Positions 43,044 through 47,300 of a DNA stretch of 64,000 nucleotides are shown here, in pieces (the stretch's first letter is position 1; the number at the start of each line of letters is the position of its first letter). Location: positions 13,110 to 77,109 of the forward strand of contig JAKRSD010000007.1 of NCBI GenBank assembly GCA_022402535.1. The letters are read 5' to 3'. The notes under the pieces are model-generated. The model saw only the letters and a list, made by a program, of their open reading frames with translations. It was not told where the DNA came from and searched no databases. This DNA comes from Flavobacteriales bacterium. Its GTDB lineage: Bacteria; Bacteroidota; Bacteroidia; CAIKAF01. Made by a program: the position numbers and the translations under genes.

Positions 43044-43116
<73 letters not shown>

Positions 43117-43121
43117 CCGAA

Positions 43122-43373: not shown

Positions 43374-44423
43374 ATGAATAAACTGAACACGATTCTTCCG
43401 TTACTCTTTCTTTTCTTCAGTTCTCAGGCACAAGCAAAACTTCGTCCCTGTTATCTGAGTATGTCGTTGAGTGCTTCGAAAACTAAATTCACCACCTCCG
43501 AACCGGTGCAAATTAATGTCACCCTAACCAACGGAAACAACCGATCGCATTCCATCCTGGTTCCGGGAAATCAATCCAAGGGGTTGAAATTGATTTACTT
43601 TTCGTGGTATACGGTGGATGAAAAGAACTTTTACACCGAAGTACACCGCGATTCGAGAATCATTTTGATGGATACCGCCGTAAAAGGCTACGTAAATTTT
43701 AACCGGCTGCAGCCCAAAGAATCCACCACGGTTCCGTTTTTCTTCAACGATGCTAAAAACGCCTCAAAACGAATCACTTCAAACTATAAAACGCCCCAAT
43801 TACCTCCCGGAAAATATAAAATATTGGCCTGGTATTATCCCTGGGACGAAGAGTTTTCGAAATATGCGTTTAACAAATTTGATTGGCATGGGAATATAGA
43901 CTCCACCGCCTACAATGAAGAATTTTTAGACTTGTCCGAAGCCGGAATCAATAGCCCCTACTTTGATATAGAAATTGTCGCCGAACCGGTTCCTGTACCT
44001 GAAAATTACACTTCCGAATGTGGTAAACATTGTTTTATATGCCGGGCTATAGAGCAGGAACACTGGGGTGTCATAAAACGAAAGATCCGACGTGATTCGC
44101 GTTTTGTGAATGAAATCAATTTGGGAAACCATTTGAAAAATGATACCAATGGTATATGGCAAAAAAAGCACAGAAACATCGTGTATGTGGGCGATACGCC
44201 GGATGCGATATTGGCTTCGCTGCCCAGTTTTTTATCGCGTGAAATTATTTTTCAAAACAAAAACGGAATCCATTATTTTGATCTCACCTGGCAATTGGGA
44301 AAAATCAGCAGAGTCGGTTCCCGGTTGAATACCTTTCTGTATATGATCGGACTAAAAAAACTTCGGGTTAGGGATTCTAAAGTGGATTATTCCCGTTTGA
44401 AATACATGCAAAAAACAGAGTGA
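43374..44423 (+). CDS. Hypothetical secreted protein (no recognised family)
   Basis: MNKLNTILPLLFLFFSSQAQA signal peptide. 349 aa. Lower GC than the flanking core genes. Confidence 0.5.
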   Translation: MNKLNTILPLLFLFFSSQAQAKLRPCYLSMSLSASKTKFTTSEPVQINVTLTNGNNRSHSILVPGNQSKGLKLIYFSWYTVDEKNFYTEVHRDSRIILMDTAVKGYVNFNRLQPKESTTVPFFFNDAKNASKRITSNYKTPQLPPGKYKILAWYYPWDEEFSKYAFNKFDWHGNIDSTAYNEEFLDLSEAGINSPYFDIEIVAEPVPVPENYTSECGKHCFICRAIEQEHWGVIKRKIRRDSRFVNEINLGNHLKNDTNGIWQKKHRNIVYVGDTPDAILASLPSFLSREIIFQNKNGIHYFDLTWQLGKISRVGSRLNTFLYMIGLKKLRVRDSKVDYSRLKYMQKTE

Positions 44424-44424
44424 G

Positions 44425-45167
44425 CCTGACATTTATCGTCGGTGGTCGAACAACATGTTACATGGAATTTTTTAAAATATATTAATCCTTTCATTTCTAT
44501 TTTCTGCAATTCAACATTTCTTTTTAGCGCTCGCCGCGGGGCATTCTTTTTTCCTTGATGAAAAAAGAATCAAAAAACCGAGGCGAAGCCGAGCTCACGA
44601 CTTCCAAATAACAAATAGACAAAAAGGAGTAAATCAAGGCTGCGGATTTTTGGCGACCCACATCCGTCTCAATTCCTAAAGGGTGGGAAGCCGGCCCCTG
44701 CGGTGCCTTTTGACCCACCCTTCTGACGGAATTTTCGCCGTGTGGGTACCCCGCCAATAAATCCGATGCCGTCCGGAGACGGAAGCCCTGCTTTCGGCAG
44801 CGTAGGAAGAAAAAGGCGTTAAGAAACGGCGAAGCCTTGGAGGCGTTTTAGCCTTTTTCTTCCGGTGCTTTGCAACGCCTCCGGAAGCAGTGCCCTTTCT
44901 TTGTTTACTTTCTTTGGGCAATTCAAAGAAAGTAAAAGCCCGCCCGGCTTGAGGGCCATTAAAAAAGGTGTCAAACAACATAACGTTTAGTATTCGCATA
45001 CCCGTTACCCTTCGAGTTACAAAGCCGGTCTGACGGACCGTTTTGCCCTCAGGGCAACGGAACCAGCGTGAGAGCGGGGATTTGGTATAATATAACCCTA
45101 TTCGCTGACCCCGTAGGGGTCGAATATCGGTAGAATAAACCCTGACATTTATCGTCGGGGGTCGAAT
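44425..45167. repeat. 26-bp direct repeats (44425..44450 and 45142..45167, 25/26 identical: CCTGACATTTATCGTCGG[T/G]GGTCGAA) bounding a 717-bp non-coding, GC-normal segment rich in nested inverted repeats
   Basis: Read directly from the sequence. Inside the segment several helices nest. ACCCACA/TGTGGGT encloses TCCGTC/GACGGA, which encloses AAGGGTGGG/CCCACCCTT. GGAGGCGTT/AACGCCTCC and GACCCC-gta-GGGGTC also form stems. The motif GGGGTCGAATA occurs three times. No credible ORF on either strand. Confidence 0.6.
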
Positions 45168-45456
45168 ATAATGTAAAGATTACGTTTTTTATATTTCGCC
45201 CCTATGGGGCTATTGTTGCATGGTCATACATTTCGGCTACCAATATGCCGCCCCTATGGGGCTATATACGCCATATGCGCAGAGCATTACCCCTGCCAAT
45301 TTACAAAAACTTTTTAACAACAAAAGGGGAAAAAGCTCCAAACTGATATATTTGAAAAAAATGCCACATTGTATACAATAAAAAAAGCATTAAGATGCAA
45401 CAATTAATAAACCACTAAACAAATCAATATAAAAGCGGATTTAAAAAAATTAAAGT

Positions 45457-46050
45457 ATGACTACATATATAATCATTTCAATTGTAATAATTACAGTGTT
45501 ATTTTTTTTACTTCGAAAAAATAATAATAACACACAAATCAACACGAAATCTGCTAGTTCATTAGTTAAGAATCCTAATTCAACACCGTTTTCGCTTTGT
45601 TCTAAAAATTCAATTTCCGTTGCATTCAAGAATATAGATATGTTAACAAAGAATAACGAAAGGGATGAAAGATTGTATAAGTCATTCCAATCATTAAAAT
45701 GCAGCAAGAATGATTTAAAAAAAAGTTTTTATTTTCTTAAAGATTGTATTTACTTCTGCAAAAATGAGCCTATCTATAACAATATGGAATTACTTGCTAA
45801 TTTAAATTTTTTAGAGACTCAAGTTAATCTTTATTATTTAGACACAGCCTCAGAAGAAATACCTCATGATGAAATTGAAAATTATGAATTCGGCAAGAAG
45901 TTTAACCTCGACAAGGGTATAGAAAATAAAGAACTTGAGGATCTTAAACTCATTTATTGGAGAGGTAAAGAACATTGGGAATTTTGGGTGGACAAATATG
46001 GGATTAATAATGATTTAGGAAAATATTGTATTTCTCAAGCGAGAAAATGA
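45457..46050 (+). CDS. Hypothetical membrane-anchored protein in the AT-rich islet (N-terminal TM helix, ~170-aa cytoplasmic/exposed domain)
   Basis: MTTYIIISIVIITVLFFLL TM anchor. About 27% GC and lysine/asparagine-rich, unlike the core genome. No motif recognised. Confidence 0.45.
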   Translation: MTTYIIISIVIITVLFFLLRKNNNNTQINTKSASSLVKNPNSTPFSLCSKNSISVAFKNIDMLTKNNERDERLYKSFQSLKCSKNDLKKSFYFLKDCIYFCKNEPIYNNMELLANLNFLETQVNLYYLDTASEEIPHDEIENYEFGKKFNLDKGIENKELEDLKLIYWRGKEHWEFWVDKYGINNDLGKYCISQARK

Positions 46051-46321
46051 AATAAATGAATGTTAGCAACAAAAAAATGTAATACTAAAGAAAGGTAAAT
46101 AAAGATGACACTGAAAGTAATTATTTAAATGAAATTTGAGAAAAGTGAATTTTTAAATGATTAATGTATTGCTATATAGAATAGTCTAGCACATAACATT
46201 CAGCAGTTTTTGTTGCATAGTAAAACTAATTGATTTAAATATAGAAAAATAGATATTAATTATTTATATTTTCAATCTTCGATGTTGCCTTTATGTCTTC
46301 TTTTAACTATAATTTAATACC

Positions 46322-46876
46322 ATGTTTCATAACTCATCTCAGACAAGATATTTTGTAATAGATAGTACAATTCAAATTGAACATTTAATTTCAAAAACTC
46401 TAGGGATAATCTTAGGAATTGATTGGAAGAACTCAAAATCATTTGGTTTTAAATCAAGCTCTTTAAGTTTTAATCAAAAAGTATTTATCATTCAAGACTT
46501 GGGAAAAAGTGATAAATTATTGGTCGATAAATTAGATTGCTTAATTCAAATACGAAACAAATTTGCTCATGTATATGAAGTTAAAACATTTGAAGATTTT
46601 TTTTCATTATCAACTAGCACAAATGACGTTAAGAAGAAGTTAGAACGATATTACATTTCAGACAATTTGAAAAATGATGAAAATAAATACCAATCTTATT
46701 TTACAAAGTTGACTTATGACATTGTTAATTCATTGATAGCAATAATAATAAATCATGAAGTTGAAAGAGGAAAAAAAAATTACAAGAAAGACTTAAATCA
46801 AAAGGTTGTTAATGAACTTTTTAAATCAGAAGAGGGTAAATTATTTATAAAAAAAATCATTGAGAGTCAAACATAA
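46322..46876 (+). CDS. HEPN-domain protein with Rx4HxY motif (Abi_2/AbiD-F-like or HepT-like); candidate toxin/abortive-infection effector
   Basis: The motif ...LDCLIQIRNKFAHVYEV... has R78-N-K-F-A-H83-V-Y, i.e. Rx4HxY, the catalytic signature of HEPN RNases. 184 aa. About 28% GC. Confidence 0.5.
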   Translation: MFHNSSQTRYFVIDSTIQIEHLISKTLGIILGIDWKNSKSFGFKSSSLSFNQKVFIIQDLGKSDKLLVDKLDCLIQIRNKFAHVYEVKTFEDFFSLSTSTNDVKKKLERYYISDNLKNDENKYQSYFTKLTYDIVNSLIAIIINHEVERGKKNYKKDLNQKVVNELFKSEEGKLFIKKIIESQT

Positions 46877-46910
46877 ATTAGAAACTTTACCTAGGTTAAG
46901 AGTGGCATAG

Positions 46911-47300
46911 ATGCACAACCCTACCCAAATAAAAACATTGCTATTTTCGTTCATGCCCAACAATAACAACAACTCCGATTTTTTCAGTCAGGTGTATCAG
47001 GTGGTGGCGCTCATTCCCAAGAGCAGAGCCACTTCTTACGGGGCCATTGCCAAATATTTGGGCAGTGCCCGCTCCTCGCGTATGGTGGGCTGGGCCATGA
47101 ATGCTTCGCATACAGCCGCACCCGGTTTGCCGGCCCACCGGGTGGTAAACCGCAACGGCGTGCTCACGGGTAAACATTTTTTTGTGGGAGAATCCATGGA
47201 AGAACGGCTTCGCCGCGAAGGCATCCGCATAGAAAATGATCAGATTCTGGATTGGGACAAGGTGTTTTGGGATCCGGGGAAAGAGCTGGGATTAGATTAA
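46911..47300 (+). CDS. Alkyltransferase-like (ATL) protein: MGMT/Ogt DNA-binding domain with the active-site Cys replaced by Ala (start may be at the internal Met 46953)
   Basis: VYQVVALIPKSRATSYGAIA (the MGMT HTH region), then TAAPGLPAHRVVNRNGVLTG aligning to the Ogt PCHRVV motif with C to A. Only the C-terminal domain is present, 115-129 aa. Confidence 0.7.
   Translation: MHNPTQIKTLLFSFMPNNNNNSDFFSQVYQVVALIPKSRATSYGAIAKYLGSARSSRMVGWAMNASHTAAPGLPAHRVVNRNGVLTGKHFFVGESMEERLRREGIRIENDQILDWDKVFWDPGKELGLD

Follow-up and report, generated by a model that had tools for sequence, protein, structure and literature searches.

REP/BIME mosaics and REPINs are mobilised by RAYT transposases. The BoxC/TMECO repeats, whose function has been an open question since the 1990s, have been associated with genome instability; as the BoxC/PIT/TMECO repeats of Escherichia coli and other bacteria, they were reportedly treated by Hoyne et al. 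in 2000, and they are the subject of Holder et al. (2015; PMC4666352). Here, we analyse a non-coding segment (44425-45167) of a 64,000-nt stretch of DNA from a Flavobacteriales bacterium (contig JAKRSD010000007.1; hereafter the window), in which the closest described kind for two elements, designated el1 and el2, is the BoxC/TMECO intrastrand-triplex repeat. We consider the segment to be, most likely though with moderate confidence, an intergenic patch of several families of small, non-coding, hairpin-forming interspersed repeats that fold as single strands and are non-autonomous. Its structured centre (44517-44958) consists of el1 and el2, two probably related elements placed head-to-head.

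According to the main text of PMC4666352, a TMECO repeat comprises three 9-nt blocks on one strand, in the order pyrimidine, 3-6-nt loop, purine, 3-nt loop (often TTA), purine, and the TMECO/BoxC consensus is CCCTCNCCC-N3-6-GGGNGAGGG-N3(TTA)-GGGNGAGGG. Triplex motifs are recognised in the same text as three consecutive blocks of 6-15 nt that form triads and are joined by loops of 1-6 nt. Judged by its sequence, the mosaic described below includes a putative new A/T-rich variant of triplex-type repeats.

Architecture of the structured segment

A preliminary description of the segment, made from the DNA letters, had judged it to be unusually structured and related to mobile or repetitive DNA, and both impressions were borne out. 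Specifically, the predicted fold is far better than that of shuffled sequences on both strands (z = -8.6 for plus and -5.6 for minus), several of the stems are perfect palindromes of 11-13 bp, and the motifs of the segment occur only here within the 64-kb window. The nested stems that had been pointed out are present (ACCCACA at 44656 with TGTGGGT at 44741, TCCGTC at 44663 with GACGGA at 44725, and AAGGGTGGG at 44679 with CCCACCCTT at 44714), as are the small GC stems (GACCCCGTAGGGGTC at 45107; CCCCTATGGGG at 45199 and 45251). The two halves of a further stem, GGAGGCGTT (44839) and AACGCCTCC (44874), are likewise in place, with a spacer of 26 nt rather than the 30 nt first reported. The G+C content is 47.7%, as against 43.9% for the window, and the segment is non-coding, as had been proposed: its sole open reading frames (ORFs) lie on the minus strand, measure 107 and 77 aa and are without a Pfam match, and the relatives found for them in databases are all short 'hypothetical proteins' derived from this same repeat DNA.

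The single large ornate RNA that had been put forward was not recovered, as there is no Rfam match and the structured part resolves into two elements of ~160-250 nt in opposite orientation. In the Rfam comparison that the preliminary description had called for, Rfam 15 (including GOLLD, ROOL, HEARO/OMEGA, RNase P, tmRNA and group II introns) returned nothing beyond tRNA-Phe at the gathering score. Matches at E<=10 within 44425-45300 are at chance level (best E 3.9-7.5, to unrelated microRNA and small RNA models), and no family reached threshold when the window and 29 related loci were searched at the gathering score and at E<=10. A supposed resemblance to a tRNA T-loop also fell away, since ARAGORN and Rfam find only the real tRNA.

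The two elements appear to follow a common plan. In this plan, a hairpin of 10-13 bp has one pyrimidine and one purine arm; immediately 5' of it the pyrimidine arm is repeated, this repeat is directly preceded by a 4-7-nt complement of the loop, and the element further includes a longer hairpin module that varies. In el1, the putative counterparts are a pyrimidine/purine hairpin, a loop-to-flank pairing, a T-rich third block and a long hairpin. The parts are as follows, with loci in other contigs denoted by L numbers and the strand of el1 given as the family 'pattern' strand, on which the order is third-strand block, pyrimidine arm, purine arm.

44517-44770, minus strand: el1, a putative Bacteroidota subfamily of the triplex-type repeat; recurs in L013 and L166-L170 at 84-96% identity with unrelated flanks
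44543-44570: hairpin a of el1, ATTCTTTTTTC / GAAAAAAGAAT, 11 bp, loop CTTGAT
44576-44631: insertion of ~53 nt in the linker, carrying the GNA mini-hairpin GGCGAAGCC
44633-44638: ATCAAG, complementary to the hairpin-a loop (44554-44559) and joined to the hairpin by an A-rich linker
44638-44770: long irregular hairpin of el1, which holds the nested stems noted above
44769-44800: el1-el2 junction with two small hairpins, CCGTC-cgga-GACGG and CTGC-tttcg-GCAG
~44801-44958, plus strand: el2, member of a cross-phylum triplex-type repeat family; also in L013, L014 and L170 (twice), and truncated in L166
44805-44863, plus strand: purine-rich 13-bp hairpin of el2 (GGAAGAAAAAGGC / GCCTTTTTCTTCC), whose loop holds GGCGAAGCC and GGAGGCGTT
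44886-44937, plus strand: el2 core, X = TGCCC, CTTTCTTTG, T-TTA, CTTTCTTTG, loop GGCAATT (X' = GGGCA), CAAAGAAAG-TAA-A
44938-44956, plus strand: GC hairpin closing el2 (GCCCGCCCGGCTTGAGGGC); carries a 15-nt insertion, CGACATTATCGTCGG, in L013

A nearly invariant core shared across phyla

The core of el2 has the general form CTTTCTTTG-N-TTA-CTTTCTTTG-loop-CAAAGAAAG-TRA-N', with an exact 21-mer at 44896-44916 and the 3' arm at 44924-44936. In the window, the closing pair N:N' is T:A, and the flank TGCCC (44891-44895) is complementary to the loop sequence GGGCA (44916-20). When the region was compared with plasmids by BLAST, the matches were confined to 44890-44948 (~90%) and came from Ralstonia megaplasmids, Ilyobacter (Fusobacteriota) and one Chondrinema record. 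With the consensus as query, copies were found in 152 plasmid or chromid records from nine genera (Ralstonia, Burkholderia, Caballeronia, Paraburkholderia, Variovorax, Pasteurella, Chitinibacter, Iodobacter and Ilyobacter), and no annotated feature lies under the copies among the matches listed; the same consensus had no match in 5,426 E. coli genomes. Moreover, exact matches to the first 21 nt of the core (TTTCTTTGNTTACTTTCTTTG) are present in at least 120 metagenome stretches. The family spans at least three bacterial phyla, with a nearly invariant core of 33 nt.

The family is defined here by the 21-mer TTTCTTTG-N-TTAC-TTTCTTTG followed within 0-14 nt by CAAAGAAAG-TRA. A covariance model of the core, R1, built from 57 copies with the window excluded, matches the window at 44886-44937 with 58.2 bits (E = 3.5e-10), which is the only strong match in the 64 kb. 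The 3' arm CAAAGAAAG is present in 117 of 126 copies. The hairpin extends over 13 bp, and its closing pair N:N' covaries, being G:C in 31, C:G in 29 and A:T in 2 of 63 copies; one further pair is a T:G wobble in 42 of these 63, which on the other strand would be a C-A mismatch. The 4-7 nt that precede the first block form a complement to the beginning of the loop, with a mean longest complement of 3.78 against 2.46 +/- 0.10 in 1000 permutations. Flank and loop also covary, with a score of 0.193, a value that none of 500 shuffles attained (0.088 +/- 0.008) and that compares with a maximum of 0.069 for slid partners. As the search pattern itself required the first block, copies retrieved by a hairpin-only pattern were checked, and all six contained the upstream duplicate block as well as the flank-to-loop complementarity.

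The pattern strand folds better than its complement in 86 of 98 copies, and also in both el1 and el2 of the window. The strand-specific wobble, together with the covariation, indicates that it is a single strand that folds, and the covariation points to a defined three-strand fold. In keeping with the triplex definition given above, the core offers 9-nt blocks and loops of 4 and 6-7 nt, with T.A-T and C+.G-C triads that would be in register. The sequence CGAGTT is found 70-80 nt upstream in ~40% of copies, within the variable hairpin module.

With respect to genomic position, 131 of 134 distinct copies lie outside predicted ORFs. Where both neighbouring genes are known, they are convergent in 15 cases, co-directional in 12 and 12 (either orientation) and divergent in 2, so that copies show no orientation preference relative to co-directional neighbours. 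No recurrent neighbour protein was found around 120 metagenomic copies.

Several copies are interrupted at the loop of the core hairpin. In L090 (1-1340) and L028 (the whole contig), an element of the insertion sequence (IS) family IS481 directly follows this loop; its transposase has 393 aa with rve, rve_3 and LZ_Tnp_IS481 domains, and it is flanked by inverted copies (>=110 nt) of the 5' part of the repeat, so that the whole is a palindromic dimer centred on the IS. Both copies in L131 have a 50-nt insertion with its own hairpin in the core loop, and L094 has a loop duplication. The core hairpin loop seems to be a preferred insertion point.

A second set of loop features concerns the GNA mini-hairpin GGCGAAGCC, which is found in the loops of both elements (44582-44590 and 44828-44836). 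The GCGAAGC type is a very stable DNA mini-hairpin. At this place L013 has GGCGCAGCC, with the GNA loop kept, and in L014 (1379-1396) an 18-nt palindrome, TACCGATGGCTATCGGTA, stands in place of the central GCC. Pairing between GGAGGCGTT and AACGCCTCC (44874) was also considered for el2 and is not supported, as two positions are changed in L014 with no compensation.

Element 1 and the dispersal of the block

Two alleles of hairpin a are found in el1, distinguished by two base pairs with compensatory changes (A:T to G:C, T:A to C:G), and the arrangement of ATCAAG with the hairpin-a loop resembles the loop-to-flank layout of the cross-phylum core. In the long hairpin, two pairs are compensatory among six aligned copies (U:A to A:U in 2; G:C to A:U in 3). 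The window, L013, L166 and L170 all contain the 53-nt insertion, whereas L167-L169 lack it and have el1 alone, in a short form of ~185 nt. An el1 profile matches the cores of an AT-rich subfamily (L015, L021, L023 and L042) in reverse orientation (nhmmer E 1.6e-4 to 2e-2), and over ~100 nt el1 can be aligned to that subfamily in reverse complement, with the parts in the same order, including TCAAGGCTGC[AG]GAT. On this sequence likeness, el1 would be a Bacteroidota relative of the cross-phylum family. As its similarity is to the family in the opposite orientation, el1 and el2 stand head-to-head, ~30 nt apart.

Homologous DNA was found by way of the two spurious ORFs, whose relatives, short 'hypothetical proteins', led to seven Bacteroidota metagenome contigs (L013, L014 and L166-L170). 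Of these, L013 matches 44517-44945 at 92% beside a peptidase gene, L014 matches 44752-44956 at 87% up to the contig end beside a transporter gene, and L166-L170 match portions of this block, the 53-nt insertion and el2 being present in some and missing from others. Every contig has different flanks (peptidase, transporter, GTPase, MutS, UbiB, adenylosuccinate lyase). In L170 (1-1426), two el2 copies lie ~900 nt apart in a contig of 1.4 kb, one of them joined to el1, which shows that the elements can cluster. In SRR15669396, a sample with the same sequence, short-read contigs end at 44557 and 44927, inside two perfect palindromes, as is expected of a repeat; the palindromes alone might also cause such ends.

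For this subfamily alone, at least 16 'hypothetical proteins' of 46-122 aa in the databases are translations of el1 or el2 DNA, and are for this reason spurious gene calls. A phage collection gave no match, viral-contig scans with two el1- and el2-specific patterns were also empty, and a literature search by sequence strings returned nothing relevant.

Mini-hairpins and the surrounding locus

The 26-bp direct repeat on which the preliminary description had placed the limits of the segment is real (25 of 26 positions match, 44425-44450 and 45141-45166), with the second copy starting at 45141 rather than 45142 and a spacing of 716. At 88% identity the repeat can be followed over 34 nt, and 0 of 100 dinucleotide shuffles produced such a match. 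Its general form is a mini-hairpin, CC(C)TGAC-ATTTATC-GTCGG(G)G, followed by GGTCGAA, and the mini-hairpin contains CGTC (ATCGTCGG); in REP repeats, palindromes of 20-40 nt bear a GTAG or CGTC tag. An 11-mer said to recur three times, GGGGTCGAATA, is exact only twice (45116 and 45158), the 'third copy' being GTGGTCGAACA at 44442. The mini-hairpins and the spacer around them are arranged as follows.

44425-44458, plus strand: direct-repeat copy 1, mini-hairpin CCTGAC-ATTTATC-GTCGG then TGGTCGAA; starts 2 nt past the stop codon of the 349-aa ORF
44959-45104: spacer with no relative in any locus fetched; hairpins at 45027-45060
45105-45127, plus strand: third, shorter relative of the motif, CTGAC-CCCGTA-GGGGTCGAATAT; ends as in copy 2, with a different middle
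45141-45174, plus strand: direct-repeat copy 2, CCCTGAC-ATTTATC-GTCGGGG then GTCGAATAT
45191-45265, plus strand: two copies of a 23-nt repeat, each with a hairpin GCCCC-TAT-GGGGC

A further copy of the motif is the 15-nt CGACATTATCGTCGG of L013, which is inserted exactly inside the terminal GC hairpin of el2: the window reads GCCCGCCC directly followed by GGCTTGAGGGC, and L013 reads GCCTGCCC-[15 nt]-GGCTTAAGGGC. Comparable to it is the 18-nt palindrome that interrupts another loop in L014. The '26-bp direct repeats' are therefore two copies of a separate mini-hairpin motif and not boundaries of anything. A scan of viral contigs for the hairpin of the repeat gave 31 matches, close to the chance expectation; all fall in unrelated DNA that mostly looks coding and has no flanks in common. 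Another small hairpin motif, TTAGTGC-N10-GCA[CT]TAA, lies ~60-75 nt upstream of el1 in L166 and L167, and ~250 nt downstream in L167; its position beside el1 echoes the mini-hairpins that flank the block in the window. The spacer also holds TGGTATAAT (45083-45091), a perfect extended -10 of sigma-70 type, the relevance of which is doubtful in Bacteroidota.

The wider setting is that of a Bacteroidota genome, with Por_Secre_tail secretion-domain proteins, typical of Bacteroidota, encoded nearby.

43044-43118: tRNA-Phe
43374-44423: 349-aa ORF, no family
44424-45456: non-coding stretch
45457-46876: two ORFs, no family, in DNA of 23-30% GC
46911-47300: gene with a methylguanine methyltransferase-type DNA-binding domain

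The flanking ORFs of 349, 197 and 184 aa have no match in Pfam, PADLOC or NCBIfam. The 349-aa ORF has a signal-like N-terminus and a G+C content of 41-43%, near the window average and below that of its neighbours (50-56%), and its exact sequence is present in only one public sample, SRR15669396. The 1.6 kb from 45300 to 46900, at 23-30% GC as against ~44% for the window, hold the 197-aa and 184-aa ORFs, upstream of which is a Bacteroidetes-type -7 motif, TATATTTG, at 45347; lying between tRNA-Phe and the methyltransferase-like gene, this stretch looks like recently acquired DNA. A neighbouring type III pantothenate kinase has relatives at 33-45% identity, the best of which (45%) is from a Saprospiraceae metagenome-assembled genome, and in a synteny comparison the element was not found beside any of these relatives.

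Proposed fold and competing explanations

In terms of mechanism, el1 and el2 would be non-autonomous repeat DNA folding as a single strand into a hairpin, possibly with an intrastrand triplex of the pyrimidine motif. Such a triplex should bring the 5' end of its third strand next to the hairpin loop, where the covarying flank-to-loop pairing would act as a clamp. Elements of this kind may be copied or mobilised in trans, would be tolerated at gene 3' ends and perhaps promote local rearrangement. Since single-strand folding is here combined with indifference to orientation, a fold in single-stranded DNA is the more economical explanation. We also considered a classical H-type RNA pseudoknot in which both helices are full, which is sterically doubtful on the pattern strand, where the connecting loop would be only 2 nt; on the same reasoning, a partial triplex or alternative conformations would fit better.

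Several observations weigh against repeat DNA with a triplex. No transposase or other mobilising gene was found, and mobility is deduced from dispersal alone because neither an empty site nor a target-site duplication was seen. The window holds each element once, copy number being known for the window only. The strand asymmetry and covariation fit a transcribed RNA equally, and a G+T-rich composition could partly account for the better folding of one strand. The triplex, read from the base sequence, competes sterically with the covarying 4-bp extension of the hairpin (N-TTA with TRA-N'), so that partial or alternating conformations are likely. For el1, seven uncompensated single changes break pairs of the outer stem, the data comprise eight closely related copies, the link to the cross-phylum family is a similarity over ~100 nt, and the core model R1 detects the element weakly (18.5 bits in L168), with no match on el1 of the window.

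The foremost rival holds that the elements are genes or 3'-untranslated-region modules for multi-copy small structured RNAs, with the pseudoknot or triple helix as a functional RNA fold serving, for example, in transcript-end protection or in the binding of a conserved protein. Its appeal lies in the covarying pairings and in the confinement of G:U wobble to one strand, to which may be added that pyrimidine-motif triplexes can form in RNA (main text of PMC4666352) and that in one subfamily the sequence immediately 3' of the core reaches 43.9 bits with the RF02421 model, for which 44 is the gathering score. We nonetheless regard this explanation as doubtful, given that copies show no orientation preference among co-directional genes (12 vs 12), that no Rfam family is found at threshold, and that copies bear piecemeal insertions, truncations and an IS insertion. 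In addition, the ~30 nt between el1 and el2 and their head-to-head placement mean that no single transcript could carry both in the folding orientation. The Bacteroidetes -7 motif (TAnnTTTG) occurs upstream of neither, its sole occurrence, at 45347, serving the AT-rich ORFs; a sigma-70 promoter scan gave counts at or below chance, and a search for terminator-like sites returned 8 where 3.1 would be expected, all of them lacking a convincing T-run downstream. Taken together, the dispersal, modularity, avoidance of divergent promoters, indifference to orientation and a head-to-head pair with no room for promoters fit repeat DNA better than RNA genes. A related and tentative possibility, to which we give limited credence, is that the core (X, CUUUCUUUG, N-UUA, CUUUCUUUG, X'-AG, CAAAGAAAG, URA-N') represents an undescribed functional nucleic-acid fold kept across phyla, a clamped pyrimidine-motif triple helix of RNA or single-stranded DNA. 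Three interlocked strands would explain why 33 nt are nearly invariant amid varying surroundings, and the fold would function either in RNA or in single-stranded DNA, in the latter case as the target of a conserved protein of the host or of a mobile element. Triple-helix RNA stability elements are known from eukaryotes and viruses (ENE elements, MALAT1) and are comparable to the RNA version of such a fold.

Two further explanations concern the segment as a whole. That the 26-bp repeats are remnants of left and right attachment sites (attL/attR) of a small element integrated beside tRNA-Phe was attractive in that the region lies 1.3 kb downstream of this tRNA, a foreign-looking 1.6-kb segment of 23-30% GC comes next, and the repeat is far beyond chance. 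The homology to other contigs (44517-44958), however, stops well inside the repeats, 59 nt after copy 1 and 183 nt before copy 2, and the motif recurs elsewhere: the third relative, 38 nt upstream of copy 2, and the insertion copy in L013 show that the 26-mer is not attL/attR. The 716 bp that separate the copies contain neither an integrase nor any other gene, and nowhere in the window is the tRNA-Phe 3' end repeated over more than 11 nt. We therefore consider this proposal largely refuted already and very improbable. Scarcely credible, finally, is a decayed protein-coding gene, for which the two minus-strand ORFs of 107 and 77 aa might speak: neither has a Pfam match, their sole relatives are the 46-122-aa 'hypothetical proteins', which vary in their starts and ends and run into unrelated sequence, and substitutions between copies are compensatory in stems.

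For the window, repeat DNA as the favoured explanation removes a false lead, as there is neither a large RNA gene nor an integrated element. The region instead opens onto a very widespread and unannotated repeat family for which no Rfam family exists; a family model would aid genome annotation and help to explain assembly breaks, and the covarying clamp offers a direct handle for mutational tests.

Relation to known systems

The segment shares with GOLLD, ROOL, HEARO and OMEGA RNAs that it is non-coding, structured and near a tRNA and foreign DNA. It differs from them in having no covariance-model match, in comprising two small elements in opposite orientation, and in the absence of an IscB or TnpB gene nearby. 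RF02421 (Bp1_Cand684_SIPHT) is a small RNA candidate of Burkholderia pseudomallei that was detected by reverse transcription PCR and reported in several phyla (PMC3521395). In one proteobacterial subfamily its model overlaps with both the 3' arm and the GC hairpin (L037, at the score just under gathering given above), whereas the window has no match to it at E<=10 and the model covers only the part 3' of the core.

Among interspersed repeats, ERIC, pneumococcal BOX and the Neisseria Correia elements, which resemble miniature inverted-repeat transposable elements and have no known transposase, are similar in being imperfect long hairpins of 100-250 nt that are modular, take internal insertions at fixed points and lie in intergenic DNA in either orientation. 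These families are, however, limited to a genus or family, whereas the el2 family spans phyla, and terminal inverted repeats and target duplications are not definable for the elements described here. REP/BIME mosaics and REPINs offer other parallels, as small palindromic repeats in mosaic clusters with alternating orientation at gene 3' ends, with folding of single-stranded DNA and inverted pairs comparable to el1 and el2. REP/BIME repeats are also targeted by other insertion sequences, as is the hairpin loop here by the IS481-family element (L090 and L028). The present elements differ from REPs and REPINs in their length of 160-250 nt rather than 20-40 nt, and in a core common to several phyla rather than lineage-specific. 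A tblastn search of 1.27 Mb (window and loci) found no Y1 (HUH) transposase, a weak test given that the IS200 TnpA query was approximate.

The comparison with TMECO is the most detailed. The core differs in being A/T-rich, with T.A-T and C+.G-C triads, as opposed to the G/C-rich consensus CCCTCNCCC; the blocks of the window are CTTTCTTTG and CAAAGAAAG, which depart from that consensus, the core is absent from the E. coli genomes searched, and neither TTTCTTT nor AAAGAAA occurs in the main text of PMC4666352. The covarying 4-bp extension, the covarying flank-to-loop pairing and the attached variable hairpin module of 100-170 nt are features of the core and el2 that the consulted sections of that paper do not describe for TMECO. 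As in TMECO, there are three 9-nt blocks on one strand: the opposite strand of the core reads CTTTCTTTG-N6-CAAAGAAAG-TAAN-CAAAGAAAG, and the pattern strand has the layout (Hoogsteen, pyrimidine, purine) that the same main text terms 'class IV'. Both kinds of repeat are multi-copy and intergenic with no known mobilising gene, and in both the orientation is unlinked to neighbouring genes, as is reported for TMECO in that text. If the three-strand fold is real, the family would constitute an A/T-rich counterpart of the BoxC/TMECO triplex repeats of E. coli.

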